Made by a program: the position numbers and the translations under genes
The notes under the pieces: generated by a model
Databases searched by the model: none
What the model saw: the letters and a program-made list of their open reading frames with translations, nothing else
What the model was told of the DNA's origin: nothing
Assembly (NCBI GenBank): GCA_030390025.1
Contig: CM059431.1
Location: 159,156,001 to 159,220,000 of the forward strand
DNA: 64,000 nt
Reading direction: 5' to 3'
Origin: Squalus acanthias
Taxonomy: Eukaryota
Shown here: one piece after another, positions 24,594 through 64,000 of the stretch
Layout of the letters: each line of letters begins with the position of its first letter
How positions within the stretch are numbered: position 1 is the stretch's first letter

Positions 24594-24619
24594 TGAACCG
24601 GCATCCTGCTGTGATTTAC
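24594..24619 (-). CDS. Candidate short cytoplasmic-tail exon (G)KSQQDAGS
   Basis: Acceptor aattaatttcag|, donor TCA|GTAAGC; 26 nt, phase 1->0. Confidence 0.4.
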
Positions 24620-28890: not shown

Positions 28891-29060
28891 CTTATGAATT
28901 GTTTCAGTAAACACGTTTGCATCTAAGAGCGATTGACTAACAGCTTCCACGAATTCTTCAATTGACGATTCTAGTCTCTGACGGTAGCAGCCGATAATTC
29001 TTCCAAGATGGATATCGTTGTAGATCGCCAACATTAGTAACTTTTTAGTCTCTGAATTTT
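28891..29060 (-). CDS. Exon A1, N-terminal half of a CARD-like death-fold domain: (E)NSETKKLLMLAIYNDIHLGRIIGCYRQRLESSIEEFVEAVSQSLLDANVFTETIHK
   Basis: Acceptor catttacacttttacag|, donor AAG|GTATGC, 170 nt, phase 1->0, open. Its downstream partner exon B is deleted. Confidence 0.75.
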
Positions 29061-30602
29061 CTGTAAAAGTGTAAATGAGAACAGGTTACAATACTATGTT
29101 TGCTTTGAGGTAATGAATAATTTGAACTAACTTTTAGAGCAGCAGCTTATCTTTAGAGCCTTTCAAACAGTGAGACGGCCAATGGCGCCTCACAGAGCAG
29201 GAATTTAGAGTTAAAGCTGCCTCTTTTTCGTAGAGTTAAGAGAAAATACCTAGATCTTGCAACATTTGGAGGTTGTTTAAAGTAAGTAGGAAGTAAAGAG
29301 TGGAAGCCCAACGCAACGGATTACAGACAGTGGTGCTAACGACTTTGTTGGAGTCCGGAGCAGAGGAACCAATAATCTGGAGAAAACAGCAAAGGGAGAG
29401 GATGGACCAGAAATAAAAGAGGGTTTCTGAAGAAGACTGTAAAATTAAGACGCTCGAGACCGTAAAGGGATTTGTAGATGAGTAGGAGTCTTTCACAAAT
29501 TGTCTGGGATAGGAAGTGAATGTAGGTAACCGACGAATGGGATTATGGATAAGTGGAAATGAGGGTGAATTGATGAATTGAAGCAGTCGAGCTCTGGAGA
29601 TTCTATCTGGCAGAGCCCAAAAGTAGTTTAAGGAATCGAGTCTAAACCTAACAAAAGCGTATCTAAAACACGAGAAAATATTCATATGTTATCAGCGCGA
29701 AGCAAAGGCATTTGCTGCGGCCACAAAGTAAGCTTGACACAAAGATCTCGCAATCAGGTTTTCCGAAGTGTAATTTAAATCAACGGAGCATCATTGGCAA
29801 ACCCGAGTGCAAGCTTCTGTGAAGTCAACAGGCTGTCTAAGCATCCAACCAAAACGCAGAATTCTCACAGACAGCGAACAAGGAAGTCAATAAGCTGTTA
29901 AACTTCTGACATTTAAAAAAAATGAATGAGAGAACTAAACAAATATTGGGGCTCTAACATGGGGAAAATGCAAAGCAGAACTAAGGAGGAAAAATCCTTT
30001 AAATTAATTACATTTTCAGAATAATGTTAATTTTTATTTAAATGAATAAAGTTGTCTCTGCACAAAATTTAAATTAGATTTTCTGGCCATCACATTTGTT
30101 TAGAATTCATAACGCTGTTGCAATCCAGTTACACCCTTCCCTTTCAGTCAAACTTTTAGTGGGGAATTCAAGAGCGCAATTACTGTGAAAGAGCCGAAGA
30201 TTGCATCGGTTTCGCTAATTTGAGAGATTTCCCTGATTACCGGCTCTGGGTGGGCACAGCGCAGCCTCTGCAATTTTATTGGAGTCAAAGGATGGGAACA
30301 TAGGACCGAGCGAACAACGGGCAGCAGATGCAATACCGGCCGTTTTTCGGCGAGAACAAAACACAGGCCGTATCGCATCCATCGCCTATTATATGTTGCG
30401 CGCGAATAAACTTGAATTGAGCTGAATATCGGCCGTATGTGTAACTATCGGCTAATGTGATTCCGGCCATTGTGTGTCCCCGACAATTAGAATTTCATCC
30501 TCCTGGACATTAACTTAAAATAAGTTCCTCGACATAAATAATGAACTCTCTTACTCTGAAAGTAAACGAGATCTTTTGCAATTAGATGTTGACATCGCCT
30601 AC

Positions 30603-30801
30603 CTTCTAGATAATATTTTCTCCCTGTATCTCTGTTCTGTATCTCTGACAATGTCGCTTTCAGTTTGGGTTTTGTATTCTGCAGTTGAAGAAATATGTTC
30701 CACATTGTTCTTTCTCCCCGAGCCCCCTTTTCCAGCACGGTATCGAAAATGCGTTGGGAAGCATCGTTTCTGCGCTGACTTTCAGCAAGTGTACTGATTT
30801 C
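30603..30801 (-). CDS. Exon B1, C-terminal half of a CARD-like domain: EISTLAESQRRNDASQRIFDTVLEKGARGERTMWNIFLQLQNTKPKLKATLSEIQNRDTGRKYYLE
   Basis: Acceptor atgtttttag|, donor AAG|GTAGGC, 199 nt, phase 0->1. The FDTVLEKG…F…L…P.L pattern matches CARD helices 4-6. Confidence 0.8.
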
Positions 30802-31775
30802 CTAAAAACATATTACAATCATATTGAACACAGTATTTTACAAAATCAGCTAAGAAACGTCGGTTTTGTTTCTCCCTCTCTTTATGGGAGGAATGAATAG
30901 AAAAGCTCGCAATCAGGTGACCAATATCTGTGTGAACGAGATAAGTAATAAGGAGCGTCACGAAAGAGCAGAGAATGGCAGACGGCCGGAGAGGATTACA
31001 GAGTTAATTCCAGAGTTTAGGCCGAGGCAGCACAACGCACGGCTACCAATGGTGGCGTGAAGAGAATCCGGGTTGCGCAATGGTTCAGAATTTGATGAGC
31101 ACAGAGATCACGGAGGATTGTACGGCTGGAGGATGTTGCAGAGATAGAGAGGACCAGCGTTGAGTCAACGAGGGAAGCTGAATTTTCTCAACTGATATGA
31201 AAAAATGTAAAGTGCCAAATAAAAAGGGAAAAGTCAGATTTCAGGAATATGGTTCGTGCAAAATGAATCATTATTTGTTGTTAGTAACAGCAATGCTCTG
31301 GAAAGCTCACAACGTGCTTTTAGAAACTCAAACTGCACAGATTATAAAACAATGCGGGTGAAATTGGAATCGGCCAGTCGCATGACAGGTGCTGATAGCG
31401 AATGGGAAGCTCGTGTTACACGCGTCCGTATTTCTTTCCCATTGATTGCAATTAGAATTCCGTTCATTTCAAGTATCATTCATCGAAACAGCAGCACAAG
31501 CTTATCAGTCAATCCTTCATCTTCTATATGAACCATTTGCTTTGAATACCTGAATAGTCCTGTCTTATGAGTAATTATTTTATTTGAAGTGTTTATGAAA
31601 TGTGATCATTGTCCCGAATTCTGCCTCATGCCAATCACCAAATTCTTAAACTTTAAACGTTTTACCTTCTGCTGGTTAACCACTATGTTTCTTTGATTTG
31701 ATTTATATAATCAACCACTACATTCAATTTGTTAATCTCCATTTCATTTCCTTTTCTATGCACATCCAAGTAATT

Positions 31776-34700
31776 GGCTGCTCGAGGAACTCCGGCTCCG
31801 TGTTGATGAGCTGGAGTCCGAGCTTCAAACACTGCGACACATCAGGGAGGGGGAGAGTTACCTGGACTCCGTGTTTCAGGAGGTAGTCACACCAATTAGA
31901 GTAACTAATTCAGAAGTAGCCCGTGGTCAGGGACAGGAAGGTGTGACTACGAGTGAGGCAGGTACAGTAATCCAGGAGGTAGTGTTGGAGGAGACGCAGC
32001 CCTTGCTCTTGTCGGACAGGTTCGAGGCTCTTACTCCCTGTGTGGATAGGAGCGGGGACTGCAGGGAGGATGAGCAACCTGGCCACAGAACCGTGGTAAG
32101 GGGGGCCATTCAAGTGGGGGAGTAAAAAGAAATGTTGTTGTGGTAGGGGATAGTATCATTAGGGGGATAGATAGGGTTCTTTGCAGCCAAGAGCGAGAGT
32201 CCCGAAGGCTGTGTTGCCTGCCCGGTGCCAGGGTTAAGGACATCTCCTCTGGGCTGGAGAGAAACTTGGAGTGGGAGGGGGAGGATCCAGTTGTCGTTGT
32301 CCATGTTGGTACCAATGACATAGATAGGATAAGGAAAGAGGTTCTGCTGAGGGAGTTTGAGCAGCTAGGGGCCAAATTAAAAAGCAGAACCTCGAGGGTA
32401 ATAATCTCTGGATTACTACCTGAGCCACGAGCAAATTTGGCTAGGTTAAATAAAATCAGGGAGTTGAATGCGTGGCTCAAAGACTGGTGTGGGAAAAATG
32501 GGTTTTGCTTCTTGGGACACTGGCACCAGTACTGGGTCAGGAGAGAGCTGTTCCGTTGGGACGGACTTCACTTGGCCATTGCTGGGACTAGTGTCCTGGC
32601 GAATCGAATAACTAGGGCTTTGGAGAGGGCTTTAAACTAATTAGTGGGGGGGAGGTTTCAAGAGAGCAAAAAATAAAAATGACAACAGAGAGGGTCATAG
32701 ACATAGGTAGCAGTAGGGGAATCACAAATCAGAGCGTGGCAGGAAGGGACAGAGTGTGTGGAGTAAAAGGTAAAGTGGTAAAAAGTGAAAAAGCAGGAAC
32801 TAAGTGCCACAAAGCATATTTGAAAGTTCTTTATCTGAATGCACGTAGCATTCGTAACAAAATAGACGAGTTAATAGCACAAATAACTATATATGGTTAT
32901 GATATTGTGGCCATTACAGAAGCATGGCTGCAGGGTGACAATGCCTGGGAATTAAACATACCAGGTTGTTTAACGATCAGGAAGGACAGGCAGGAAGGAA
33001 GGGGAGGTGGGGTGGCTATGTTAATAAATGAAGGAATCACTGTAATACAGAGTAATGATATTGGGTCAAAAAATCATGATAATGAAACAGTTTGGGTGGA
33101 GCTAAGGAATAATAAGGGGAAAAAACACTAGTGAGCGTAGTCTATAGGCCTCCGAACAGTTGCAACTCTGTGGGACGGAGTATCAATCAGGAAATGGTTG
33201 AGGCATGTAATAAGGGAATATGTATAATTATGGGGGATTTTAAATATCATATTAATTGGACAAATCAAATGGGGCAGGGCTGCCTTGAGGATGAGTTCAT
33301 TGAGTGTATTAGGGATGGGTTTCTTGAGCAGTATGTAACTGAACCGACCAGGGGGCAAGCAACCTTAGATCTGGTTCTGTGTAACGAGACAGGATTAATT
33401 AAAAATGTACTAGTAAAGGATCCCCTTGGAATGAGTGCCCATAACATGGTTGAATTCCATATTCAATTAGAGGGTGAGAAGGTTGGATCTCAAACAAGCG
33501 TCCTAAGCTTGAATAAAGGAGACTATGAAGGTATGCGAGCGGAATTGAGCAGAGTGGATTGGGAAAATAGATTAAAGGGTAAGACGACACATGATCAGTG
33601 GTGTACATTCAAGGAGTTATTTTACAACTTCCAAAAAATATATATTCCACTGAAAAGAAAAGGGTGTAAAAGAAAGGACAGTCATCCGTGGCTAAGTAAA
33701 GAAATTAAGGATTGTATGCGACTAAAAACAAGGGCATATAAGGTAGCAAAATCTAGTGGTAGGACAGAGGATTGGGAAATCTTTAAAAGGCAGCAAAAAA
33801 TAACAAAAACATTGATTAAGAAAGGGAAGATACATTATGAAAGTAAATTAGCAAAAAATATAAAAACAGATAGTAAGAGTTTTTATAGTTATATAAAAAG
33901 AAAAAGGGTGGCTAAAGTAAATGTTGGTCCCTTAGAGGATGAGACCGGGAAATTAATGGTGGGAAATATGGAGATGGCAGAAACACTGAATGAATATTTT
34001 GTATCAGTCTTTACAGTAGAGGACACTAAGAATATCCCAACACTGGACAAACAGGGGGCTATAGGGGGAGAGGAGCTAAACACGATCAAAATCACTAAGG
34101 AAGTGGTACTCGGTAAAATAATGGGACTCAAGGCGGATAAATCACCTGGACCTGATGGCTTGCATCCTAGAGTCTTGAAGGAAGTGGCGGTAGGGATTGT
34201 AGATGCATTGGTAATAATTTTTCAAAACTCCCTGGATTCCGCTAAGGTCCCGGCAGACTGGAAAACTGCTAATGTAACACCCTTATTTAAAAAGGGCAGT
34301 AGACAGAAGGCTGGTAACTATAGACCGGTTAGCCTAACATCTGTGGTAGGTAAAATTTTGGAGTCCATTATTAAGGAAACAGTAACAGGACATTTGGATA
34401 ATCATAATTTAATAGGACAAAGTCAGCATGGTTTTACGAAGGGTAAGTCATGTTTGACAAATTTGCTGGAGTTCTTTGAGGAAGTAACATATAGAGTGGA
34501 TAAAGGGGAACCAGTGGACGTAGTGTATTTAGACTTCCAAAAGGCATTTGACAAGGTGCCACACAAAAGATTATTGCTTAAGGTAAAAAATCGCGGGATT
34601 GGGGGCAATATTCTGGCATGGATAGAGGATTGGCTATCTAACAGAAAGCAAAAAGTTGGGATAAATGGTTCATTCTCAGACTGGCAATCAGTAACTAGTG

Positions 34701-35868
34701 GTGTTCCACAGGGGTCAGTGCTGGGTCCCCAACTCTTTACAATCTATATTAACGATTTGGAGGAAGGGACCAAGTGTAACATATCAAAATTTGCAGATGA
34801 TACAAAGATGGGAGGGAAAGTAGTGAGTGAGGAGGACATAAAAAACCTGCAAGGGGACATAGACAGGCTAAGTAAGTGGGCAGAGATTTGGCAGATGGAA
34901 CACAACACTGGAAAGTGTGAGGTGATGCACTTTGGCAGGAAAAATCCTAGAGCAATTTATTATCTTAATGGCAAGAAACTGGAGAGTACTGAAGTGCAAA
35001 GGGATCTGGGGGTCCTGGTGCACGAAACTCAAAAGGTTAGTATGCAGGTGCAGCAAGTGATTAAGAAGGCAAATGGAATGTTGGCTTTCATTGCTAGGGG
35101 GATAGAATATCAAAATAGGGAGGTATTGCTTCAGTTGTACAAGGTATTGGTGAGACCGCACCTGGAATACTGCATACAGCTTTGGTGTCCTTACTTAAGG
35201 AAAGACATCCTTGCACTCGAGGCAGTGCAAAAAAGGTTCACTCGGTTAATCCCGGGGATGAGGGGGTGGTCATATGAGGAGAGGTTGGGTAGATTGGGAC
35301 TCTACTCATTGGCGTTCAGAAGAATGAGAGGCGATCTTATTGAAACATATAAGATTGTGAAGGGGTTGGATCGGGTGGATGCGGGGAGGATGTTCCCGAT
35401 GACGGGTGAGACTAGAACTAGGGGACATAGTCTTAGAATAAGGGGCTGCTCTTTCAAAACTGAGATGAGGAGGAACTACTTCACTCAGAGGGTGGTAGGT
35501 CCATGGAATATGCTGCCACAAAAAGCTGTAGAAGCTACATCTTTAAATAAATTTAAAACATAAATAGACAGTTTACTAGAAGTAAAGGGCATTAAGGGTT
35601 ACGGGGAGCGGGAAGGAATTTGGACATGAGTATAGGTTCGGATCGGTCATGGCCCTGTGGGTAGTGGAGCGGGCCCAGGGACTGTGTAGCCTGATTCTGC
35701 TCCTATTTCGTGTGTGCAATTCTGTTAGATGCAGGAGATGGTTCTGTGATAGATAGTAGATTGGCGGTTAGGATCAGATCAGCCATGATCTTATTGAATG
35801 GCGGAGCAGGCTCGAGGGGCCGATTGGCCTACTCCTGCACCTATTTCTTATGTTCTTATGTTCTTATG
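31776..35868 (+). mobile_element. Young near-full-length CR1 LINE (ORF1 coiled-coil + SGNH esterase; ORF2 APE + RT)
   Basis: ORF1 VGDSIIRG…CLPGARVKD…VHVGTND…DGLHL. ORF2 YLNARSIRNK…, YLDFQKAFDKVPH, GVPQGSVLGP, FADD. (TTCTTATG)n tail. Absent from the other units at the equivalent site. Confidence 0.97.
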
Positions 35869-36349
35869 CTCCACCCGTTTTATTATCGTGTAATTCCTAT
35901 AAATCGTATCGCAATCATTTCCTACTTGGTACCTTCGTATTGCTTCCCGACGGAATTATCTGATCCATTCCGTCCCAATATATCTGTGCTCGTGTGTTCT
36001 TGATTTGTTGCAATTGGTTATCCTGTACTTATATATTGCTTTGATTTACTGTTCTTCTGAATTCTAATGATATCACTGCTTCTTAGATATCCGTTATCCG
36101 TTTGCAGTAATTGATCCAATAGCCATTCCTTCCCTGTTGTTCTGGAACCGTACCCATCTATCACACGTCCTGGATACGTGGCAGATAGCACACTCCCTCT
36201 TGCACCCGTACATCACTTCTATACTTTAGATATTTTAAGTCCCCCATATCTCTGATACCCTCGCTAAAATGTCTCCATTTTTTCAATATATCGCTTCCTC
36301 AATTCGTGACCCACCACTTGTGAATGAAAATTAACTCCTCTTAGTTAAT

Positions 36350-39413: not shown

Positions 39414-39583
39414 CTTATGAATTGTTTCAGTAAACACGTTTGCATCTAAGAGCGATTGACTAACAGCTTCCACGAATTCTTCAATTGACGATTCTAGTCT
39501 CTGACGGTAGCAGCCGATAATTCTTCCAAGATGGATATCGGTGTAGATCGCCAACATTAGTAACATTTTAGTCTCTGAATTTT
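39414..39583 (-). pseudogene. Exon A2 (CARD-like N-half) with splice donor mutated GT->AT
   Basis: Open 170-nt frame (ORF 39384-39566), but the boundary reads AAG|ATATGC. Confidence 0.75.
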
Positions 39584-41606: not shown

Positions 41607-41805
41607 CTTCTAGATCATGTTTTGTCCCTGTATCTCTGTTCTGCATCTCAGACAATGTCGCTTTCAGGTTGGGTTTTGTATTCTGCAGTTGAAGAAATAT
41701 GTTCCACATTGTTCTTTCTCCCCGAGCTCCCTTTTCCAGCACGGTATCGAAAATGCGTTGGGAAGCATCGTTTCTGCGCGAACTTTCAGCAAGTGTACTG
41801 ATTTC
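41607..41805 (-). CDS. Exon B2 (CARD-like C-half)
   Basis: Acceptor atgttttcag|, donor AAG|GTATGC, open (within ORF 41491-41835). Confidence 0.8.
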
Positions 41806-42528: not shown

Positions 42529-45500
42529 ACATAGAAACATAGAAACATAGAAAATAGGTACAGGAGTAGACCATTCGGTCCTTCGAGCCTGCACCGCCAT
42601 TCAATGCGTTCATGGCTGAACATGCTACCTCAGTACCCCATTCCTGCTTTCTCGCCATACCCCTTGATCCCCTTAGTTGTGAGTGTTATATCTAACTCCA
42701 TTTTGAATATATTTAGCGAACTGGCCTCAACAACCTTCTGTGGAAGAGAATTCCATAGATTCACCACTCTCTGGGTGAAGAAGTTCCTCCTCAGCTCAGT
42801 CCTAAATGGCTTCCCCTTAATCCTTAGACTGTGACCCCTGGTTCTAGTTTTCCCTACCATTGGGAACATTCTGCCCGCATCTAATTTGTCTAAACCAGTC
42901 AGGATTTTAAATGTCTCTATAAGATCCCCCCTCATTCTTCTGAACTCCAGAGGATACAAGTTCAGTTGACCCAATCTTTCTTGATATGTCAGTCCGGCCA
43001 TCCCAGGAATCAATCTAGTGAACCTTCGCTGCACTCCCTCAATAGCAAGAATGTCCTTCCTTAAGTTAGGAGACCAAAACTGCGCACAATACTCCAGGTG
43101 TGGCCTCACCACGGCCCTGCACAACTGTAGCATCACCTCCCTACTCCTGTACTCAAATCCCCTTACTATGAAGGCCATCATTCCGTTTGCTTTCTTGACT
43201 GCCTGCTGCACTTGCATTCCCACCTTCAGTGACTGATGTACCATGACGCCCAGGTCTCGTTGCACGTCCCCTTTCCCTAATCTGCCACCATTCAGGTAAT
43301 AGTCCGCCTCTCTATTTTTACCACCAAAGTGGATAACCTCACATTTATCCACATTGTACTTCATCTGCCATACATTTGCCCATTCACCCAACCTGTCCAA
43401 GTCACTCTGTAGCCTCCTAGCATCCTCCTCATTGTTCACACTGCCTCCCAATTTAGTGTCATCCGCAAATTTGGAGATATTACATTTAATCCCTTCGTCC
43501 AAATCATTAATATATAATGTAAACAGCTGGGGTCCCAGCACCGAACCCTGCGGTACCCCGCTGGTCACTGCCTGCCATTCTGAAAAGTACCCATTTACTC
43601 CTACTCTTTGTTTCCTGTGTGCCAACCAGTTCTCAATCCACGTCAACACATTACCCCCAATCCCATGTGCTTTAACTTTGCTCACCAATCTCTTGTGTGG
43701 GACCTTGTCGAAGGCCTTCTGAAAGTCCAAATACATCACATCTACTGGTTCCCCCCTGTCCACCCTATTGGAAACATCCTCAAAAAATTCCAGAAGATTT
43801 GTCAAGCATGATTTCCCTTTCACAAATCCATGCTGACTTGGACCTATCATGTCGCCACTTTCCAAATGGTCTGTTATGACATCTTTAATAATTGCTTCCA
43901 TCATTTTACCCACGACCGATGTCAGGCTGACCGGTCTATAATTCCCTGCTTTCTCCCTCCCTCCTTTTTTAAAAAGAGGGGTTACATTGGCCACCCTCCA
44001 CTCCATCGGAACTGATCCAGAGTCTAAGGAATGTTGGAAAATTATCGTCAATGCATCCACTATTTCCAAGGCCACCTCCTTAAGTACTCTGGGATGCAGA
44101 CCATCAGGCCCCGGGGATTTTTCAGCCTTCAGTCCCATCAATTTCCCCAATACCTTTTCCCGACTAATAAGGATTTCCCTCAGCTCCTCCCTCTTACCAG
44201 ATCCTCTGACCCCTTTTATTTCCGGCAGGTTGTGTGTGTCCTCCACAGTAAACACCGAACCAAAGTACTTGTTCAATTGATCTGCCATTTCCTTGTTCCC
44301 CATTACGACTTCCCCTGTTTCCGACTGCAGGGGACCTACGTTTGTTTTTACTAACCTCTTTCTTTTTACATATTTATAGAAGCTTTTGCAGTCCATTTTA
44401 ATGTTCTCTGCAAGCTTCCTTTCATATTTTATTTTCCCTGCCCTAATCAAACCCTTCGTCCTCCTCTGCTGAGTTTTGAAGTTCTCCCAGTCCCCGGGTT
44501 TGCTGCTACTTCTGGCCAATTTGTATGCAACTTCCTTGGTTTTAATACTATCCCTGATTTCCCTTGTTAGCCATGGTTGAGCCACCTTCCCTTTTTTATT
44601 TTTACGCCAGACCGGGATGTACAATTGTTGTAGTTCATCCATGCGATCTCTAAATGTCTGCCATTGCCCTTCCACTGATAGCCCCTTAAATATCGCTTGC
44701 CAATTTAACCTCGCCAATTCACGCCTCATACCCTCAAAGTTGCCCTTATATAAGTTCTGGACCATGGTCTCTGACTTAACTGTTTCCTTCTCCATCCTAA
44801 TGTAGAACTCTACCATACTATGGTCACTCTTCCCCAGGGGGCCTCGTACCACAAGATTGCTGATTAGTCCCTCCTCATTACACAACACCCAGTCCAGGAT
44901 GGCCTCCCCTCGAGTTGGTTCCTCAACATATTGGTTTAGGAAACCATCCCTTAAACACTCCAGGAAATCCTCCTCCACCGTATTGCTTCCAGTTTGAGTA
45001 GCCCAATCTATATGCATATTAAAGTCACCCATGATAACTGCCGTGCCTTTTTTGCACGCACCTCTGATTTCCTGTTTCATACCCTCCCCCACCTCACTAC
45101 TGCTGTTTGGAGATCTGTACACAACTCCCACTAACGTTTTCTGCCCTTTGGTGTTCTGCAGCTCAACCCATATTGATTCCACATCCTCCAAGCTGATGTC
45201 CTTCCTAGCTATTGCATTAATCTCCTCTTTAACCAGCAATGCTACCCCACCCCCTTTTCCTTTTATTCTATCCTTTCTGAATGTTGAATACCCCTGGATG
45301 TTCAGTTCCCAGCCTTGATTGTTCTGGAGCCACGTCTCTGTAATCCCAATCACATCGTATCCGTTAACATCTATTTGCACAGTCAATTCATCCACCTTAT
45401 TACGGATACTCCTTGCATTAAGACACAGAGCCTTTAGGCTTGTTATATTAACATCCTTTGTCCTTTTAGACTTATGATTTAGTATGGCCCTTTGTGTTTC

Positions 45501-45566: not shown

Positions 45567-48500
45567 ATATGAACCATTTGCTTTGAATACCTGAATAGTC
45601 CTGTCTTATGAGTAACTATATTATTTGAAGTGTTTATGAAATGTGATCATTGTCCCGAAAATTGTCTCATGCCAATCACCAAATTCTTAAACTGTCAACG
45701 TTTTACCTTCTGCTCGTTAACCTCTATGTTTCTTTGATTTGATTTATATAATCAACCCCCTACATTCAAGTTGTAAATCTACTTTCCATTTCCTTTTCTA
45801 TGCACATCCAAATAATTCTTGTATGTGCACCAGTCCTTTTATTATCGTGTAATTCCTTTATATCGTATCGCAATCATTTCCGACTTGGTACCTTCGTATT
45901 GCTTCCCGACGGAATTATCTGATCCATTCCGTCCCAATATATCTGGGCTAGTGTGTTCTTGATTTGTGGAAATTGGTTATCCTGTACATATATATTGCGT
46001 TGATTTACTGTTCTTCTGAATTCTAATGATATCATTGCTTCTTCGATATCCGTTATCCGTTTGCAGAAATGGATCCAATACTCATTCCTTCCCTGTTGTT
46101 CTGGAAACGTACCCATCTATCTCACGTCCTGGATACGTGGCAGATAGCACACTCCCTCTTCCACCCGTACATCACTTCGATACTTTAGATATTTAAAGTC
46201 ATCCATATCTCTGATACCATCGCTAAAATGTCTCCATTTTTTCAATATATCGCTTCCTCAATACGTGACCCACCACTTGTGCATGATAATGAGCTCCTCA
46301 TAGTTAATGGCCAGTTTTTTTCGATCGCAGGAATCCCGGGTGCGCAGTTCTGCAATCTGAAAAAATCTACGCCCTTACCTTCGGGATCCAGGTACGCACA
46401 GGATTCCGATCCTGGGCCTCTCCAATCTCCACTTGCGCATGGCCGTATTATCCCAGAGGCACAGGTAGATTACAGGGTTCATGGGATCATGTGGGCTATG
46501 GGGATCCAATCAAAGTAGGGAAACTGCATTCATACACTTGACAGGAACACCTGTCAAATATATGAATGGAGATCACCCCAAAAACATATTGGCCCGGAAA
46601 TTCCTTTCGCAGGCCGCCCCCGGGCGGAGGACTGCGATCTAGAAAAATCTGTGACTGGATTGGAGGACTCCCGGGAGGCGCAGAGTTCCGTTGCTTGGTC
46701 TCTCCAAACTTCGGGTGCGCAGCGCCCACGTATCCCAGAGGCGCAGGCGGTTCGCAGCGTCCCTGGGATCACGTAGGGAGCCAATCAGAGAAGGGAATCT
46801 CCCTTCATACACCTGACAGTAAGACCTGTCCAATATATGAATGGAATTCACCCCGAAAACATAGTAAAAGCTAGCCTTAGCTCTGCTTATAGCAGGCATA
46901 CAATTTCTAATGGTTTTCTGCAGGCGGGGGTTCTCCAAAAAGCGGAACTATCCGTCCGCAGAGGACCTTGTCCAGGCTTGGCGTCCAATCTGTCAAGAGC
47001 ATTCTTGACAGATCGGAAATTACGGATTTCAGCGCATGCGCTTGGCATGCCTGAAACCGGCATTTCCGATGTCCCTGCGGTTGTGTACACAGCGCGTACA
47101 CACCCGTAAGGATCGGAAAATACCGGCCCATTAACGCCAAGCTCCCAGACGTGCGCTTACATTTACCATGTCTTCATATCATAACTTCCTAGAGCATCAT
47201 CAGACAAACTCTACCTTCAACCAATCAGCTTTATTCACCATCCTTTATTAATATATTTGTTATATAACTTCAGTAAATAATCGAAAAGAGACCAGATAGA
47301 CATCAAGGATGCGACTCGGAATTTTATTTTAAATAAAACATGATGGCTGTCATGACAGGAGATGCCGGTAATGGTGATGTCCCTGAGCATTGGGCAGAAG
47401 AATGAACGTGAAGGCTTAAAGTTGCGTAACCCATGGCCTGGATGAATTTTGCGAGTGCTTGGTGAGACGTAGAATAATGCAGATATTTTGAGGTTATTAA
47501 TTATACGTAATAACTGTGGCAGGGAAGTTGGTAGATAGGCAGGTAGAATCAGCCATGCAGTGAAGTTGGAAGGAGAAAAGAAATGGAAGCAACGAATTGA
47601 ATATGTTCAGTAGAAAGTTCTAGAAATTGGTGCCACCGGCAGTGACTCACACGAATCGTCTCGTTTAATTAAAATGCTCGTCTGCTTTGCTAAAGAACGG
47701 ATAGAACTTCTCGGCCGTGAGCGACAGCTTATTTTAAATATGTCAGTTAATTTATTTTCCTGAGATTAGATATATGTGGCTATTAGATGTTCTATCTAGC
47801 TCCAGGATATCCATTGAGTCTTTGCTGCGGACGCGTGATGGTTGTGCTGCTAGTGGTATCTTATTCAAATATTCATTACAATATTTGGCCCGTAATTTCC
47901 TTTAGGAGGCTTCCTACGTGCGGTTGACTCCTGTCGGGAATAAATCTACGCCCTTACCTGAGTGCTCCCGAGGAGGAGCCATTTCCGATCCTGGGCCTTA
48001 CCACAGCAGAAATGCGCAGGGCCCACCTGATCCCAGGGACGCTTGCGAAGCTCGTGAGCCCCTGAGATAGGTGGACAGGCGAGAGAATAGAAGGGAATCT
48101 CCCTTCATACCTTTGACAGATAGAGCTGTCAAAGGTATGAATGGAGATCACCTAAAAAACAAATCAAAACAATAAATACATTTTTCAAAAGCATCGCGTT
48201 TTTAAAATGAGTAACATTTAAATACATTTTAAATAATTTAAACAAAAATTTAATGTTTTGAAAAAATGGATTATAGATTTTTACGGAGCTAAAATTAAAA
48301 TTACCTTATTTAGAAGTACTTAAAAATTATAAATGAGCGAAAAGATATGTATTTTTTTACTTTTTTAACCTCTTGTGCTCTGAAAAGCAGGCCTTACGCC
48401 TGCTTTTACCAGGAGTACGATTTTTAGGTGTTTTCAAGACCGGATGTCCTGCAGCAAGCGGAAATCTCCACCCGCAGAGGCAATTCTCTGGGGCAAGCGT

Positions 48501-49389
48501 CCGATCTGTCAAGATGATTCTTGACAGATCGGAAATGCCGGTATTAGCGCATGCGCTTCGCATGCCTGAAACCGGCATTACCGATGTCCCTCCCGGTGTG
48601 TCCACAGCGCGTACTCACACGTAGGCAACGGAAAATACGAGCCATTGTGTCTTGGCGTGTTCCTTGCAATCCTGAAATTTGAATTAATGGCTCCTTGGAT
48701 AGGATGCCATTTATGTCCGATTACAGAAACAACAGTAACCCGAATCCCTGCAGAAATACGGCCAAGGTAAATAGCTTAACTGCAAGACGTTTTCCAGTGA
48801 ATTATCAGTTGATTAGATAGTCTCTTTCTGCAGATGGTTTTTGCATGTCACTTATGCGGCACAAATGTTACTTGCTAATTATCCACCAAAACTGGCATGT
48901 TGACCAGATCTTGTTGCATACGGGCATGGACTGTTTAGTTACCGGAGGAATTGGGAATGGAATTCAACACTGCAATCATCAGTGTACAGCCCAAATTCTG
49001 ACCGTATGACAGAAAAACAGGAATTGATGATGCAGCTGACAATATTTGGGTCGAGGATTCTTCCACGTTGAACTCATGGTTATAACATGAGATGCTGTTC
49101 TCTTCTTATTTAACGCATTAAAAACCTCAAGTTCTGTTTCCTTTGAGACGATATTAGCTGTAATCTAAGAGCACGTAAAAGGGTGGGCCGTGAGATGGCT
49201 GTTATAATTCACCCCATGGCTTTCATGTCCTTGCACCACCACACCTGCGCCGCGAACATAATGTCGCCAGAGAATACAACCTTTACACCAGCAAACCATG
49301 CCGTTCCAGACCGATTTGAACAATCTCCCACCAACCCGTCTCAAATTTATGAGGCCTATTTAGACAATTCCAACATATATGTAGCATAC

Positions 49390-49559
49390 CTTATGAATGG
49401 TTTCAGTAAACACGTTTGCATCTAAGAGCGATTGACTAACAGCTTCCACGAATTCTTCAATTGACGATTCTAGTCTCTGACGGTAGCAACCGATAATTAT
49501 TCCAAGCTGGATATCCGTGTAGCTCGCCAACATTAGTAACATTTTAGTATCTGAATGTT
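49390..49559 (-). CDS. Exon A3 (CARD-like N-half), intact
   Basis: Canonical AG and AAG|GTATGC; open frame HSDTKMLLMLASYTDIQLGIIIGCYRQRLESSIEEFVEAVSQSLLDANVFTETIHK. Confidence 0.8.
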
Positions 49560-51584
49560 CTGTAAAAGTGTAAATGAGAACAGTTTACAATACTATGTTT
49601 GCTTTGAAACAATGAATAATTTGAACTATCGTTTAGAGCAACAGCTTATCTTTAGAGCCTTTCAAACAGTGAGACGGCAAATGGCGCCTCACACAGCAGG
49701 AATTTAGAGTTAAACTGCCTCCTTTTCGTAGAGTTAAGAGAAACGACCTAGTACTTGCAACATGTGGAGGTTGTTTAAAGTAAGTAGGAAGTAAAGAGTG
49801 GAAGCCCAAGGCAACGGATTCCAACCAGTGGTGCTGACGACATTGTTGGAGTCCGGAGCAGAGGAACCAATAATCCGAGGACCACAGCAAAGGGAGAGGA
49901 TGGACCAGAAATAAAAGAGGGTTTCTGAAGAAGACTGTAAAATTAAGACGCTCGAGACCGTAAAGGGAATTGTAGATGAGTAGGAGACTTTCACAAATTG
50001 TCTGGGATAGCAAGTGAATGTTGGTCACCGACGAATGGGATTATGGATAAGTGGAAATGAGGGTGAACTGATGAATTGAAGCAGTCGAGCTCTGGAGATT
50101 CTATCTGGAAGTGCCCTTAAGTCGTTTAAGGAATCAAGTCTAAACGTCACAAAAGCGTATCTAAATCACGAGCAAATATTCATATGTTATCATATATCCA
50201 GAAAATTAAAATATGATGGTTGCGGACGGTGATCTGAGAATCCATTCGAAATTTATTGCTTGGAATCACCAGATGCTGCTGAGCAATTAGAAATAGTCGT
50301 GACTGTCGCTTGTTCGCCTAAAGAGCTAATAGATAATGCACAGATAGTTAAAGAAAGTAACAGTAAATGCAAGCTCATTCCTTCTTTCTTGGGAAAACTA
50401 AACTGCGATACGGACCGGAGTAATTAAAATACTGTGAATCTAAATGTACTCAAAATAAATTTGATAGATATCAATACAACAATTACAAGAACACAACATT
50501 GGGAAAAAGTTATTGATATCAAATTGAAAAAATAACTAAATCTCAAATACCACGTCTGAAACAAGGCAATAGCTGGTAGGAATCATAATTGAATGTAAGT
50601 GATTCTAAAATGTCTATCGATGGAAGTAGAAAGACCTGAGAGATACTAAATAAAGAACGGCCCGGAATCAGCGGTGAGCGCGAAGCAAAGGCATTTGCTG
50701 CGGCCACAAAGTAAGCTTGACACAAAGATCTCGGAATCAGGTTTTCCGAAGTGTAATTCAAATCAACGGAGCATCATTGGGAATCCCGAGTGCAAGCTGC
50801 TGTGAAGTCAACAGGCTGTCTAAGCATCCAACCAAAACGCAGAATTCTCACAGACAGCGAACAAGGAAGTGAATAAGCTGTTAAACTTCTAACATTTAAA
50901 AAAATGATTCAACGAACGAAACAAATATTGGGGCTCTAACATGGGGAAAATGCAAAGCAGAAATAAGGAGGAAAAATCTTTTAAAATAATTACATATTCA
51001 GAATAATGTTAATTTTTATTTAAATTAATAAAGTTGTCTCTGCACAAAATTAAAAAATAGATTTTCTGGCCATCACATTTGTTTAGAATTCAATACGCTG
51101 TTGCAATCCAGTTACACCCTTCCCTTTCAGTCAAACTTTTAGTGGGGAATTCAAGAGCGCAATTACTGTGAAAGAGCCGAAGATTACATCAGTTTCCCTG
51201 ATTTGAGAGATTTCCCTGATTACCGGCTCTGGCTGGGCACCGCGCAGCCTCTGCAATTTTATTGGAGTCAAAGGATGGGAACATAGGACCGAAGGAACAA
51301 CGAGCAGCAGATGCAATACCGGCCGTTTTTCGGCGAGGACAAAACACAGGCCGTATCGCATCCATCGCCTATTATATGTTGCGCGCGAATAAACTTGAAT
51401 TGAGCTGAATATCGGGCGTGTGTGTAACTGTCGGCAAATGTCATCCGGCCATTGTGTGTCTCCGACAATTAGAATTGCATCCTCCTGGACATCAACTTAA
51501 AATAAGTTCCAAGACATAAATAATGAACTCTCTTAATCTGAAAGTAAATGAGATCTTTTGCAATTAGATTTTGACATCGCCTAC

Positions 51585-51783
51585 ATTCTAGATCATGTTT
51601 TGTCCCTGTACCTGTCTTCTGTATCTCTGACAATGTCGCTTTCAGTTTCGGTTTTGTATTCTGCAGTTGAAGAAATATGTTCCACATTGTTCTTTCTCCC
51701 CGAGCTCCCTTTTCCAGCGCGGTATCGAAAAAGCGTTGGGACGCATCGTATCTGCGCTGACTTTCAGCAAGTGTACTGATTTC
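51585..51783 (-). CDS. Exon B3 (CARD-like C-half) with an extra in-frame proximal donor at 51612
   Basis: Acceptor tttttttag|. Donors CAG|GTACAG (exon end 51612) and AAT|GTAGGC (exon end 51585). Open frame. Confidence 0.75.
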
Positions 51784-54700
51784 CTAAAAAAATATTGCAA
51801 TCATATTGAACAAAGTATTTTACAAAATCAGCTAAGATACGGTTTTCTTTCTCCCTCTCTTTATGGGAGGAATGAATAGAAAAGCTCACAATCAGGTGAC
51901 CAAAATCTATGTCAACGAGATAAGTTATAAGGAGCGCTTCGAAAGAGCAGAGAATTGCAGACGGCTGGAGAGCATTTGAGAGTTAATTCCAGAGTTTACG
52001 ACCGAGGCAGCACAACGCACGGCTACCAATGGTGGCGTGAAGAGAATCGGAGTTGTGCAATGGTTCAGAATTTGATGAGCACAGAGATTACGGAGGATTG
52101 TACGGCTGGAGGATGTTGCAGAGATAGAGAGGACTAGCGTTGAGTCACCGAGGGAATCTGAATTTTCTCAACTGATATGAAAACATGTTAAGTGCCAAAT
52201 AAAAGGGGAAAAGTCAGATTTCAGGAATATGCTTCGTGCAAAATGAAGCATTATTTGTTGTTAGTAACAGCAATGTTCTGGAAAGCTCACAACGTGCTTT
52301 TAGAAACTCAAAACTGCTCAGATTGTAAAACAGTGCGGGTGAAATTGGAATCGGTCAGTCACATGACAGGTGCTGATAGCGAATGGTCGGCTCGTGTTAC
52401 ACGCGTCCGTATTTCTTTACCACTAATTGCAATTAGACTTCCGTTCATTTCAAGTATCACTCATCGAATCAGCAGCACAAGCTTATCAGTCAATCCTTCA
52501 TTTTCTATATGAAACATTTGCTTTGAATACCTGAATAGTCCTGTCTTATGAGTAACTATTTTATTTGAAGTGTTTATGAAATGTGATCATTGTCCCGAAT
52601 TCTGTCACCTGCCAATCACCAAATTCTTAAACTGTCAACGTTTTACCTTCTGCTCGTTAACCTCGATGTTTCTTTCATTTGATTTATATAATCAACCCCC
52701 TACGTTCAATTTTTAAATCTACATTTCATTTACTTTTCTATGCACATCCAAGTAATTCTTGTATGTGCTCCACCCGTTTTATTATCGTGTAATTCCTATA
52801 TATCGTATCGCAAACATTTCCTACTTGGTACCTTCGTATTGCTTCCCGACGGAATTAACTGATCCATTCCCTCCCAATTTATCTGGGCTAGTGTGGTCTT
52901 GATTCGTTGAAATTGGTTATCCTGTACATATATTTTACTTTGTTTTACTGTTCTTCTGAATTCTAATGTTATCTTTGCTTCTTAGATATCCGTTATCCGT
53001 TTGCAGAAATGGATCCAGTACTCATTCCTTCCCTGTTGTTCTGGAAACATACCCATCTATCTCACGTCCTGGATACGTGGCAGATAGCCCACTCCCTCTT
53101 CCACCCGTACATCACTTCTATACTTTAGATATTTAAAGTCATCCTTTTCTCAGATAGCCTCGCTAAAATGTCTCAATTTTTTCAATATATCGCTTCCTCA
53201 ATCCGTGCCCCACCACTTGTGCATGATAATGAACCCCTCATAGTTAATGCCCAGTTTTTTCGATCGCAGGAATCCTGGGTGCGCAGGTCTGCAATCTGGA
53301 AAAATCTACGCCCTTACCTTCGGGATCCTGGGACGCACACGATTCCGATCCTGCGCCTCTCCAATCTCCACTTGCGCAGGGCCCTATTATCACAGAGGAT
53401 CAGGCAGATTACAGGGTGCCTTGGATCATGTGGGCCATGGGGAGCCAATCAAAGTAGGAAATCTGCATTCATATACTTGACAGGAAGACCTGTCAAATAT
53501 ATGAATGGAGATCACCCCAAATACATAGTGGCCCAGAAATTCCTTTCGCAGGCCGCCCGCAGGCGGAGGACTGCGGTCTGGAAAAAATCTGCGCCTGGAC
53601 CGGAGGGCTCCCGGGAGGCGCAGGGTTCCGTTGTTTGATTATCTCTAAACTTCCGGTGCGCAGGGCCCACGTATCCCAGAGGCGCAGGCGGTTCGCAGCG
53701 TCCCTGGGATCACGTAGGGAGCCAATCAGAGAATGGAATCTCCCTTCATACATTTGACAGGAAGACCTGTCAAATATATGATTGAAATTCACCCCCAAAA
53801 CATAGTACAAGCAAGCCTTAGCCCTGCTTTTAGCAGGCATACAATTTCTAAGGGTTTTCTGCAGGCGGAGGATCTCCAGTAAGCGGAAATATCCGTTCGC
53901 AGAGGACCTTCTCCAGGCTAGGCGTCCAATCTGTCAAGAGCATTCTTAACAGATCGGAAATTACGGATTTCAGCGCATGCGCTTGGCGTGCCTGAAACCG
54001 GCATTTCCGATGTTCCTACGGTTGTGTACACAGCGCGTACACACACGTAAGGAACGGAATATCCGGCCCATTAACGCCAAGCTCCCAGCCGTCCGCTAAC
54101 ATTAACACGTAGTTGTTAATGTCTTCATATCATAACTTGCTAGAGCATCATCAGACAATCGCTACCTTCAATTAATCAGCTTTATTCACCATACTTTATT
54201 AATATATGTGTTACATAACTTCAGGAAATATTCGAAAAGAGATCAGATAGACATCATGAATGAGACTCGGAATTGTATTTTTAATAGGACATGATGGCTG
54301 TCATGACAGGAGATGCCGGTAATGTTGATGTCCCTGAGGATTGGGCAGAAGAATGAACGTGAAGGTTTAAAGTTGCGTAACCCCTGGACTGGATGAACTT
54401 TTCGAGTGCTTGGTGAGACGTAGAATAATGCAGATTTTTTGAGGTTGTTAATTATAAGTAATAACTGTGGCAAGGAACTTGGTAGATAGGCAGGTAGAAT
54501 CAGCCATGCAGTGAAGTTGGAAGGAGAAAAGAAAAGGAAGCAACGACTTGGATATGTTCAGTAGAAAGTTCTAGAAATTGGTGCCACCGGCAGTGACTCA
54601 CACGAATCGTCTCGTTTAATTAAAATGCACGTCTGCTTTGCTAAAGAACGGACAGAATTTCTCGGCCGTGAGCGACAGCTTATTTCAAATATGTCAGTTA

Positions 54701-56325: not shown

Positions 56326-56495
56326 CTTATGAATTGTTTCAGTAAACACGTTTGCATCTAAGAGCGATTGACTAACAGCTTCCACGAATTCTTCAATGGA
56401 CGATTCTAGTCTCTGACGTTAGCAGCCGATAATTCTTCCAAGCTGGATATCCGTGTAGATCGCCAACATTAGTAACATTTTAGTATCTGAATTTT
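56326..56495 (-). pseudogene. Exon A4 (CARD-like N-half) with premature stop
   Basis: Splice sites are canonical, but TAC->TAA at 56419-56421 (GC*RQR). Confidence 0.78.
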
Positions 56496-58516: not shown

Positions 58517-58715
58517 CTTCTTGATCATGTTTTGTCCCTGTATCTCTGTTCAGTATCTCTGACAATGTCGCTTTCAGTTTGGGTTTTGTATTCTGCAGTT
58601 GAAGAAATATGTTCCACATTGTTCTTTCTCCCCGAGCTCCCTTTTCCAGCACGGTATCGAAAATGCGTTGGGAAGCATCGTTTCTGCGCGAACTTTCAGC
58701 AAGTGTACTGATTTC
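58517..58715 (-). CDS. Exon B4 (CARD-like C-half), intact
   Basis: Acceptor atgtttttag|, donor AAG|GTAGGC, open (overlaps ORF 58401-58652). Confidence 0.8.
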
Positions 58716-61700: not shown

Positions 61701-62514
61701 ACGCGTGATGCTTGTGATGCTAGTGGTATCTTATTCAAATATTAATTACAATATTTGGCCCGTAATTTCCGTTAGGAGGCTTCCTGCGTGCGCATGCCTC
61801 CTATCGGGAAGAAATCTGCGCCCTTACCTGAGGGCTCCCGAGGAGGAGCCATTTCCGATCCTGGGCCTGTCCACAGTAGAAATGCGCAAGGCCCACCTGA
61901 ACTCAGGGAAGCTTGCGAAGCTCGTGAGCCCCTGAGGTAGGTGGACAGGCGAGAGAATAGTAGGGAATCTCCCTTCATACCTTTGAAGATAGACCTGTCA
62001 AAGGTATGAATGGAGATCACCCCAAAAACAAATCAAAACAATAAATACATTTTTAAAAAGCATCGCGTTTTTAAAATGAGTAACATTTATATTAATTTAA
62101 ATATTTTAAACAAAAATGTAATGTTTTGAAAAAAAAATTAAAGATTTTAACGGATCTAAAATTAAATTTACCGTATTTAGAAGTACTTTAAAATTATAAT
62201 TGAGTGAAAAAATGTATATTTTTTTACTTTTTTAAACTCTTGTGCTGGGAAAAGCAGGCCTTACGTCTGCTTTTACCAGGAGTACGATTTTTAAGTGTTT
62301 TCAAGAGCGGATGTCCTGCAGCAAGCGGAAATCTCCACCCGCAGAGGCCCTTCTCTGGGGCAAGCGTCCGATCTGTCAAGATGATTCTTGACAGATCGGA
62401 AATGCCGGTTTTCAGCGCATGCACTTCGCATGCCTGACACCGGCATTACCGATGTCCCAACGGGTGTGTACACAGCGCGTACTCACACGTAGGCATCGGA
62501 AAATACGAGCCATT

Positions 62515-63249
62515 TTCCCAGAAATTAAACATCGATGGTTCCCGCGGGGGTAAGGATTCCCCGCGAAATCGCACTCCTCGCCTACCTTTTTGTTTCGGGC
62601 CCACAGGAAGTTCAGTTTCAGGGACTCTCCCTGTTGCAACCGAGCAGTGCTTGCGTGTCCCTGAGGCGCAATTAGTTCGTACGAGCTCTGGAATCACGTG
62701 ATTCAGTTAGAGCCAATGGCAGCACACCATCTTTCATTCATAGTTTTGACAGCAAGGGCTGTCAAAGCTATGAATACTACAAGACCCCAAAATAACAGCT
62801 AAACCTCAATTAAATTTTAAAAAAGCCATCACTTTAATAAAATAACGATAGTTAAATAAATTAAACATCTTAAAAAAAAATTAAATTTTGAAAAAATTTA
62901 AAATCTTTTTAAAAGTTATAAAAATAAACTTACCTTTCTTTAAATTCTCGAAAAAAGATAAACCTGTTGAAAAAAATTTAAAATAACACTTAATGAACTA
63001 CTTACCGTTTTAAAAGGGGGTCTTGCGCCTGCTTTCTTTATGTGTAAAATCTTCACCACTTACCTGCGCGTTCAAACCGGAAAAAAAAACTAAGTGCACT
63101 GTTCCCTTAGGAACCGCCCCCTTTGCAATACACGAAGTGCCGTTTTCCCGCGTATGCGCAGTGCACACAGGAAATCGGAAATTCGGGACCTAATACGCGA
63201 GAGTGCACAGTGCGTACTCTCGCGTATTAGGTCTAACTTTCGTGCCAAT
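62515..63249. mobile_element. 735-bp MITE-like element E3, present only in the last unit
   Basis: Other units read gagcc-att-gtgtc; here 735 bp intervene, flanked by att/aat. It shares the TTGACAG/CTGTCAA hairpin and AT-rich core with E2. Confidence 0.7.
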
Positions 63250-63991
63250 GTGTCTTGGCGTGTTCCTTGCAATCCTGAAATTTGGATGAATTGCTCCTTG
63301 GATAGGATGCCATTTATGTCCGATTACAGAAACAACAGTAACCCGAATCCCTGCAGAAATACGGCCAAGGTAAATAGCTTAACTGCAAGACGTTTTCCAG
63401 TGAATTATCAGCTGATTAGAGAGTCTCTTTCTGCAGATGGTTTTAGCATGTCACTTATGCGGCACAAATATTATTTGCTAATTATCCAACAAAACTGGCA
63501 TGTTGACCAGTTCTTGTTGCATACGGGCATGGAATGTTTAGTTACCTGAGGAATTGGGAATGGAATTGAACACTGCAATCATCAGTGTACAGCCCAAATT
63601 CTGACCGTATGACAGAAAAAAATGAATTGATGATGCAGCTGACGATATTTGGGTCGAGGATTCTTCCACGATTAACTCATGGTTATAACATGAGATGCTG
63701 TTCTCTTGTTATTTAACGCATTAAAAACCTCAAGTTCTGTTTCCTTTGAGACGATATTAGCTGTAATCTAAGAGCACGTAAAAGGGTGGGCCGTGAGAAG
63801 GCTGTTATCATTCACCCCATGGCTTTCAAGTCCTCGCATCACCACACCTGCGCCGCGAACATAACGTCGCCAGAGAATACAACCTTTAAACCAGCAAACC
63901 ATGCCGTTCCAGACCGACTTGAACAATCTCCCACCAACACTTCTCAAATTTATGAGGCCATTTAGACAATTCCAACATATATGTAGCATAC

Positions 63992-64000
63992 CTTATGAAT
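63992..64000 (-). CDS. 3' tip of exon A5 (runs out of the window)
   Basis: ATTCATAAG|GTATGC at the position expected from the unit periodicity. Confidence 0.7.

Follow-up and report, generated by a model that had tools for sequence, protein, structure and literature searches.

An array on the minus strand of a 64,000-nucleotide stretch of Squalus acanthias DNA (the window, here analysed at its full length) is probably the decaying pseudogene arm of a shark multi-CARD NLR: a two-exon CARD-like module, tandemly amplified without a NACHT of its own, that gives no long in-frame poly-CARD protein because of stop codons, a missing exon and a dead splice site. The repeat unit represents the CARD module of a subfamily of multi-CARD NLRs residing in a 6-Mb cluster, and it is amplified in sister blocks as well.

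Organization of the array

Two CARD-module exons, A (170 nt, phase 1 to 0) and B (199 nt, phase 0 to 1), are repeated head to tail in the order A5-B4-A4-B3-A3-B2-A2-B1-A1 along the window. These sizes, phases, strand and order had been described in an earlier, sequence-only reading and were confirmed by coordinates and splice sites; the nine window exons have AG acceptors (9/9) and GT donors (8/9). More units beyond position 64,000 were looked for, as that reading had suggested, and the full array was found to comprise 7 A and 6 B exons. Repeat units are 92.6 to 94.4% identical to one another, far above chance. The claim that every complete unit measures 6.94 kb did not hold, as a single A-to-A spacing of the six in the whole array is 6,936 bp and the other five are 7.6 to 10.5 kb; in the window, the longer spacings are due to insertions. 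No NACHT, LRR or start exon was found inside the repeat unit, in line with the earlier view that a domain, and not a whole gene, was amplified. Neither Rfam nor tRNA scanning gave a match in the window. The features are as follows:

64161-63992, minus strand: exon A5, of which only 9 nt (63992..64000, 3' end) lie in the window; receives a junction stop from B5
58517..58715, minus strand: exon B4, C-terminal CARD half plus linker; open, AG/GT
56326..56495, minus strand: exon A4, N-terminal CARD half; TAG at codon 25 (56421-56419)
51585..51783, minus strand: exon B3, open; final base T (51585)
49390..49559, minus strand: exon A3, open, AG/GT
45567..52507: uninterrupted 6.94-kb unit (B3, 2.0-kb intron, A3, most of the A-to-B intron)
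42540..45567, minus strand: LINE insertion between units; 991-aa frame, endonuclease and reverse transcriptase
41607..41805, minus strand: exon B2, open, AG/GT
39414..39583, minus strand: exon A2, open frame; donor AT (39413-39412), not GT
31775..35867, plus strand: second LINE insertion, in the A2-to-B1 intron; 815-aa frame
30603..30801, minus strand: exon B1, open, AG/GT
28891..29060, minus strand: exon A1, open, AG/GT; orphan, B partner missing
25939..25945: array end; terminal B exon lost in a 3.56-kb deletion when compared with the sister block
18186..18281, minus strand: 96-nt start-type "E" exon, symmetric phase 1-1; ATG, open; 5' part of the downstream NLR
12376..12471, minus strand: second 96-nt E exon, diverged; open

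The deletion was mapped by the correspondence of window 15000-25939 to C7:158822470-158833404 and of window 25946 to C7:158836965.

The module resembles CARDs of chondrichthyan NLRs

The joined A+B module corresponds to the N-terminal domain of shark and ray NLRs, as the sequence-only reading had proposed: A1+B1 matched 116 of 120 chondrichthyan NLRs. It is 46 to 54% identical to the domains of P0124, P0125 and P0171 and at most 41% identical to other NLR domains, and its repeats are of the type found in multi-CARD chondrichthyan NLRs such as P0125. Two or three domain matches were detected in 18 of the 120 long homologues, some of which are fused multi-NACHT models. In contigs from related organisms, both the A-B and the B-A junctions are spliced, as had been proposed.

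The fold was assessed on predicted structures of two homologues, 36 to 54% identical, standing in for the joined A+B. The P0171 domain (54% identical; pLDDT 91.7) matched the SP100 CARD (Z 12.2, rmsd 2.0, 96 residues aligned), and the P0042 domain (36 to 37% identical; pLDDT 92.7) matched the NLRC4 CARD (Z 12.2, rmsd 3.0, 89 aligned), a Z of about 12 being near the caution level of the structure-comparison tool for helical proteins. CARDs occupied nearly all of the 34 top-ranked places, with death domains at Z of 8 or less. The best Foldseek match of the P0042 domain was the NOD1 CARD (TM 0.71, E 0.18). Both models have an additional N-terminal helix ahead of the CARD core. These predictions support the earlier proposal of a CARD or death fold and indicate that the module would adopt a six-helix death fold closest to CARDs.

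Sequence profiles gave mixed results. A family profile recovered the Pfam-CARD proteins P0199 (E 2.7e-18), P0229, P0230, P0234 and P0235, and the top Atlas match, a lead only, was a CARD cluster at 0.87. None of six full NLR homologues matched Pfam PF00619; P0121 reached 23.4 bits (E 5.9e-5) against a cut-off of 23.9. None of four single exons, which are half domains, matched a Pfam CARD, Death or PYD family. Against PDB sequences, the family profile gave nothing at E < 0.01 among 34 matches, which included ICEBERG (E 0.21; Foldseek TM 0.58) and CARD11 (E 1.2). Exon B alone as a homologue query gave 22 candidates, none significant, and the three-CARD region of P0125 recovered itself alone among 8,000 scored.

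Lesions and coding capacity

Consecutive splicing had been predicted to keep the frame and add 123 aa per unit. The frame is indeed kept; it is not open. When the exons were joined in the order E-E-A7 to A1, the chain contained four stops, two of which are TAA codons created at junctions. B3 ends in T and therefore reads TAA when joined to any A exon, so that the B3-A3 junction is T|AA; B5-A5, just outside the window, does likewise. Added to these are the TAG in A4, the AT donor of A2 and the absence of a B exon after A1. Consecutive splicing of this array yields at most two CARDs, and by our reading of the exon table, skipping of exon pairs could give up to three. Eleven of the 13 array exons remain open with intact splice dinucleotides.

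The proposal that the array is the multi-CARD arm of a gene starting outside the window was borne out in part. Start-type E exons exist upstream of the array, beyond the window, but they are damaged (ATG to ACG in one, TAG in the other). The NLR 57 kb downstream is frameshifted, exon B' being 171 nt versus 172 nt in the sister, and this exon precedes the NACHT exon, which lies 62 kb downstream of A1. The frameshifted B' means that the downstream NLR yields no receptor in the window's block, and with the array stops it leaves the window copy without an effector domain, NACHT and LRRs in one open frame. The B' lesion, a single base in a run of A, may stem from an assembly error.

Sister blocks and the NLR cluster

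Copy number varies among loci (1, 5, 6-7, 7 and 9), as had been proposed. Five of the six window B-A segments have a sister-block partner at 97.8 to 98.3% identity and the sixth at 97.1%; among themselves they are 93 to 95% alike. The 9-unit sister 330 kb away (C7:158.84-158.94 Mb) was considered as a fully intact copy and rejected, since its joined exons also reveal two junction stops. Among the B-to-A joins, the three large arrays have junction TAA codons in 2/6, 2/8 and 2/6; the loci at 155.25 Mb (0/4) and 154.65-154.71 Mb (0/9) have none.

Elsewhere in the cluster, A/B exons do sit directly ahead of the NACHT type that belongs to them. An open NACHT follows three stop-free A-B pairs with AG/GT ends at 157.23 Mb, where CARD, NACHT and LRR share an open frame at the sequence level. 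The NLR at C7:154.6-154.7 Mb (70 kb examined) has 9 A and 10 B exons that run into an open cognate-type NACHT; one A acceptor is TG, with an in-frame AG 9 nt downstream. It too consists of tandem copies of the two-exon cassette, about 80% identical at the DNA level, but differs from the window array in its spacing of about 4.6 kb, its nine joins free of junction stops and its run into an open NACHT. The cluster holds at least two separate amplifications, with units of about 4.6 kb and 6.94 kb.

Cognate-type NACHT matches of at least 89% numbered six (157.23, 154.06, 154.89, 158.61 and 155.68 Mb, and C1065). None lay in the 223 kb around the window or near the array among the matches listed, and no cognate NACHT exon directly follows the last B of the window array. 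Alignment of the NACHT-less arrays (158.83, 158.32 and 155.02 Mb) revealed one common 3' breakpoint after a B exon. By this breakpoint, they are CARDs without a sensor or enzyme domain that derive from partial gene duplication, as with COP and ICEBERG.

Selection on the exons

We compared 23 A and 23 B copies from four loci, with the junction codon left out and intron rates as the expectation; the figures are pairwise and allele counts against these rates, without a tree, and non-homologous flanks around B were masked. Amino-acid-changing alleles were depleted (58 observed versus 98 expected, P = 9e-6), and synonymous alleles were not (28 versus 30.5). The sequence-only reading had named dN/dS near 1 as a mark of neutral amplification of a dead fragment; we obtained an omega of about 0.65 (p = 0.04), and the exons retain a partial purifying signal. 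With the junction codon added, there were 4 stop alleles versus about 8.4 expected (P = 0.08). Before masking, 369 exonic nt contained one indel, compared with 41 gap blocks over 2,433 columns of intron.

Private changes of the window array (10 nonsynonymous plus one stop to 5 synonymous) did not reject neutrality (p = 0.27). The nonsynonymous share was not higher in private than in shared changes (Fisher p = 0.48); a simple history of selection followed by release would predict more nonsynonymous private changes. The omega, the rare exon indels, this private-to-shared ratio, the 11 intact exons and the possible assembly error in B' speak against decay.

Alternative readings of the array

Could the NACHT-less arrays be functional CARD-only genes? 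The sister would then make a five-CARD protein, E-E-(AB)5-stop, and the window copy one of at most two or three CARDs, and these products would serve the CARDs of the cluster's NLRs as decoys or seeds. The junction TAA falls exactly behind a complete CARD and linker; in the sister, both upstream E exons are open with ATG, the first five A-B pairs are all open with AG/GT ends, and AATAAA/ATTAAA hexamers lie 321 and 563 nt past the terminal B donor. The sister's private changes (5 nonsynonymous to 6 synonymous) also depart from neutrality at p = 0.027, one of three uncorrected tests, but constraint does not weaken past the first stop (3 to 3 ahead of it, 2 to 3 behind it). Human ICEBERG and COP, which arose by partial duplication, provide a precedent. 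However, a stop followed by many exon junctions normally leads to nonsense-mediated decay, and the start exons of the window copy are damaged. We regard this reading as unlikely.

A single giant chimeric NLR, in which the array forms a variable 5' arm, would require splicing from B through the 96-nt E exons to A'-B'-NACHT-LRR, with damaged units skipped pairwise and CARD number varying accordingly. All phases are compatible with it. The 32 exons of the sister from the first E to LRR2 all have AG/GT ends, their sole stops being the two junction TAAs, with no further NACHT between array and A'; tandem E-type exons also occur within the database shark NLR models P0010, P0011 and P0014. Such a gene would nevertheless demand a 250-kb transcript and specific pair-skipping. 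Moreover, an 8-kb stretch preceding the first E exon occurs again right behind the array, suggesting a second gene start, and the B' frameshift denies the window's block a receptor. This makes the giant gene distinctly improbable.

It is very improbable that the block is an assembly artefact, in which the sister's second haplotype would have been assembled in tandem and base errors would mimic lesions. Its flanks do match those of the sister at about 98.4% and lie near a contig end. However, the mutual identity of about 98% extends to three blocks, which two alleles could not account for; the NACHT exons diverge by 5%; six copies carry the junction-stop allele; and the blocks are unlike in the order of their units and in their LINE insertions.

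Discussion

Under the preferred reading of a decaying arm, unequal crossing-over would have added CARDs to A+B cassettes repeatedly within the cluster, which can occur without a frame break because A+B is a phase 1-1 cassette. One rearrangement may then have severed a CARD arm from its NACHT, leaving it upstream of a different NLR; the unit would have been amplified, to about 6 to 7% divergence, and the whole block later duplicated (flanks about 98% identical), with units gained, lost and shuffled between blocks. Read-through constraint appears to have lapsed, because the junction-stop allele spread to six B copies. By analogy with NOD and inflammasome families, live members may be NLR sensors that present several CARDs together and recruit a CARD-bearing partner.

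The closest known relatives are chondrichthyan models annotated as "NACHT, LRR and PYD domains-containing protein 3-like": P0125 (Mustelus asterias; 3 copies plus NACHT and LRR) and P0124 (4 copies). Their domains belong to the same subfamily and are likewise arranged in tandem, and their NACHT type is the one found after A/B exons at other cluster loci; the window array differs in its 7 A and 6 B exons, young 6.94-kb unit, lack of a cognate NACHT and several lesions. Although the database name refers to PYD, the predicted fold of the homologues is nearer to CARDs (Z 11 to 12) than to the AIM2 PYD (Z 6.4). ICEBERG (CARD18), COP (CARD16) and INCA (CARD17) likewise go back to CARD exons that were duplicated without the catalytic part of a parent gene, but they are single caspase-1-derived CARDs with demonstrated expression, whereas the shark array is multi-copy, NLR-derived and known from sequence. 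The sensors NOD2 and RIG-I/MDA5 also have an N-terminal effector arm made of CARDs in tandem. Theirs is a fixed pair, ancient and divergent, in contrast to the 1 to 9 near-identical copies with ongoing turnover seen here. The RIG-I and MDA5 CARD duplications are given as independent in PMC8455134. That source also reports lineage-specific expansion and birth-death turnover of NLRP-related NLRs in the whale shark (Tan et al. 2021), a turnover that the S. acanthias cluster shares; it is not known to cover the N-terminal domain or CARD arms in tandem, and its Supplementary file 12 may list domain content. Our literature search, thin on subscription journals, yielded no publication that deals with tandem CARD arms of chondrichthyan NLRs. 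The window array is a birth-and-death by-product of a real CARD-number expansion that is apparently undescribed.

For analyses of this kind, the array carries a caution, as an "in frame" call made from exon phase can conceal junction stops. The window probably holds no working gene; it represents the decaying end of a CARD-expansion process and is informative on its mechanism and timing. It is a quite unlikely idea that CARD number tunes shark NLR cluster signalling. In that scenario, amplified cassettes would furnish receptors with anything from 1 to 10+ CARDs, and the NACHT-less arm, truncated, amplified anew and provided with a junction stop, would encode proteins of several CARDs (five from the sister) that serve those receptors as multivalent decoys or as seeds assembled in advance. 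The cluster also contains an arm detached from its NACHT, a route by which CARD-only regulators could emerge. Because CARD signalling depends on clustering several CARDs, a receptor family whose CARD count shifts as cassettes duplicate provides a natural experiment in valency.

Structure and lesions of the array

Self-alignment revealed a tandem unit of 6.94 kb, with 92.6-94.4% identity, from window position 25,945 onward; two LINE insertions break it up, as do smaller indels. The unit carries a pair of minus-strand exons, A (170 nt) and B (199 nt), that encodes one CARD-like domain; the coordinates and phases that the sequence-only reading had given for both exons were borne out. With flanking DNA included (positions below zero or above 64,000), the array reads A7-B6-A6-B5-A5-B4-A4-B3-A3-B2-A2-B1-A1, numbered from its 3' end, and starts near 81,076. 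The B expected after A1 was lost through a 3.56-kb deletion relative to the sister block, a nine-pair array on the same contig. Consecutive splicing had also been proposed to yield an in-frame poly-CARD chain, which the lesions below contradict: starting at A7, it runs into a stop after two CARDs. In our reading of the exon table, ideal pair-skipping recovers at most three CARDs from the window array.

Lesions and LINE insertions in the window array
A4, codon 25: TAG
A2, donor: AT
B3 and B5, last base T instead of G: TAA on joining, since A exons begin with AA
42633-45605, minus strand: LINE insertion, 991-aa open frame, Pfam endonuclease and RT
33116-35560, plus strand: LINE insertion, 815-aa open frame, Pfam endonuclease and RT

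Because of their long open frames, both LINE insertions, which we take to be CR1-type, are probably young. Each unit also holds several 250-290-bp interspersed repeats (70-80% identity; 46325-47123, 48383-48646 and equivalents), probably SINE/MITE-like and densely covered by contigs of related organisms. A C-rich minisatellite (23/27 bp, about 196 copies) occupies 4172-9154 and 13373-13825, and similar arrays lie upstream of start-type exons in sister blocks. Open frames resembling an LTR-type retroelement were seen at about 158,000-162,100 (plus strand).

Identity of the module

Pfam returned no match for single A or B exons. As a local query, the joined A1+B1 peptide matched the N-terminal domain in 116 of 120 chondrichthyan NLRs, and was closest to the database homologues P0124, P0125 and P0171 (46-54% identity); P0125, from Mustelus asterias, is a gene model that combines three copies of the domain with a NACHT and LRRs. 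A profile of the domain gathered 125 representatives at E <= 0.001, and 12 of 20 scanned hits matched a Pfam CARD at E <= 0.01; of these, 7 exceeded the cut-off. Structures were predicted for two homologous domains (pLDDT 92-93), through which the window's joined peptide was assigned. Both matched CARDs best (Z 12.2 to the NLRC4 and SP100 CARDs; TM 0.71 to the NOD1 CARD), and both have an extra N-terminal helix. The module is thus predicted to be a CARD transitively, through the folds of homologues. Shark NLR models with 2 to 4 copies of the domain exist in databases; literature searches found no published description of multi-CARD arms in sharks. More distant profile hits (P0199, P0229, P0232, P0234, P0236 and P0243) include one protein with eight CARDs and a death domain, and proteins combining a TNFR cysteine-rich region with a CARD match.

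Gene context and related arrays

Symmetric, start-type exons of 96 nt (E) flank the array.

E exons around the window array
118,768: upstream of A7, ATG changed to ACG
100,244: upstream of A7, TAG
18,281; 12,471; -3,554; -17,082: four downstream copies

Beyond the downstream copies follow another CARD pair, more distant than those of the array (A' and B'), then a NACHT exon with a 577-aa open frame (Pfam NACHT, WH and HD2) and LRR exons. B' is 171 nt near the window versus 172 in the sister, a frameshift within an A-run. All but one of the named homologues of this NACHT exon were shark or ray proteins, and its type differs from the module's own. The four downstream copies, like seven copies at 158.754-158.826 Mb, form a run of ATG-bearing E exons (96 nt, phase 1-1) that no CARD exon interrupts and that lies ahead of a single NLR body; such a run could be a repeat kept in frame, or a set of alternative first coding exons.

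At 157.23 (3 pairs), 154.03 (3) and 158.56 Mb (5), A/B exons run straight into the cognate NACHT type (48-49% identity to P0125 where measured); its frame is open at 157.23 Mb, and it is broken at 154.03 and 158.56 Mb. A genome search (3.7 Gb) listed 40 places with this type, 36 of them at 153.8-159.6 Mb of this contig, so that the window (159,156,001-159,220,000; the 159.8-Mb contig ends about 0.56 Mb further on) sits in a dense NLR cluster. For whale shark, an NLRP-related expansion with birth-death turnover has been published (PMC8455134). A-exon fragments in inverted orientation occur within the three-CARD NLR and upstream of it (157,254,861-157,255,575 and 157,299,230-157,299,949), as signs of local inversions.

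Arrays lacking a NACHT of their own
158.83 Mb: 9 pairs (sister)
158.32 Mb: 6 A + 7 B
155.02 Mb: 1 pair

These three, which the end-point alignment covered, share one end point just before the next A's expected start, which suggests a single truncation, with amplification and block duplication coming after it. In the 155.25-Mb array (5 pairs), an E exon follows at a similar distance. Between blocks, flanking sequence shows about 98% identity, versus 93-95% for units within a block, and the best partners of window units (97-98%) occur in either of two sister blocks. At the single-unit locus, an insertion of some 2.7 kb interrupts the NACHT exon (155,067,013-155,070,281).

In the sister block (158.69-158.94 Mb), AG/GT ends and an open frame were seen for 32 of 32 exons. 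Even so, the sister is not intact either: two of its B copies end in T, as B3 and B5 do, so consecutive splicing ends after the fifth CARD. A CARD-only product from the sister is an unlikely reading of these five CARDs. The terminal T occurs in 6 of 23 B copies compared, two per large array; none of the joins observed in NACHT-linked arrays has it.

Selection

Alleles were counted in 23 A and 23 B copies from four loci against expectations from masked intron rates; the counts are approximate because of gene conversion. Non-synonymous alleles numbered 58 (98 expected), synonymous 28 (30.5) and in-exon stops 3 (8.2), giving an omega of about 0.65. The exons are therefore not neutral debris overall, as they would be under neutral amplification of a dead fragment, the outcome named beforehand as refuting the poly-CARD proposal. 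Changes private to one copy appear neutral for both the window array (10 non-synonymous and 1 stop to 5 synonymous, p = 0.27) and the 158.32-Mb array (17 + 1 to 3), and suggest mild constraint in the sister (5 to 6, p = 0.027 uncorrected). A clean history of selection and then release is weakened, since no overall difference separates private from shared changes (p = 0.48).

Splicing in relatives

Contigs were taken from four public runs, which cover two organisms and two studies and are presumed to be RNA, and were aligned to window 49,300-56,600. The proposed A-to-B junction was found in all four runs and B-to-A in three, the latter 9 nt off the predicted position and in frame; in three runs, one contig of 383-390 nt has the order B-A-B. 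At 85-88% identity to the window, these contigs appear to show that relatives splice the cassette of some subfamily member in tandem; they say nothing about the window locus.

Amplification and probable decay of the cassette

Together, these data show a phase 1-1 two-exon cassette that was repeatedly amplified, separated from its cognate NACHT and hit by lesions. Unequal crossing-over would be the amplifier, and the window block has probably lost function. A giant chimeric NLR produced by skipping is unlikely, slightly more so than the CARD-only product. An assembly artefact is very improbable.

In NOD1/2 and inflammasome NLRs, a CARD partner is recruited or nucleated after NACHT oligomerisation. 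By analogy, the several CARDs of live members of the amplified family may act likewise once their NACHT oligomerises; the teleost nodosome is treated in PMC9680067.

An NLR 4.46 Mb from the window has, within the 70 kb examined, 9 A and 10 B exons (about 80% identity) leading to a NACHT frame open for 609 codons, with no junction stops. In one of its A exons (154,676,110) the acceptor reads TG, and an in-frame AG lies 9 nt downstream of it. The surprising object of the cluster is this long poly-CARD NLR rather than the window array, which represents a second, separate amplification and has probably decayed.
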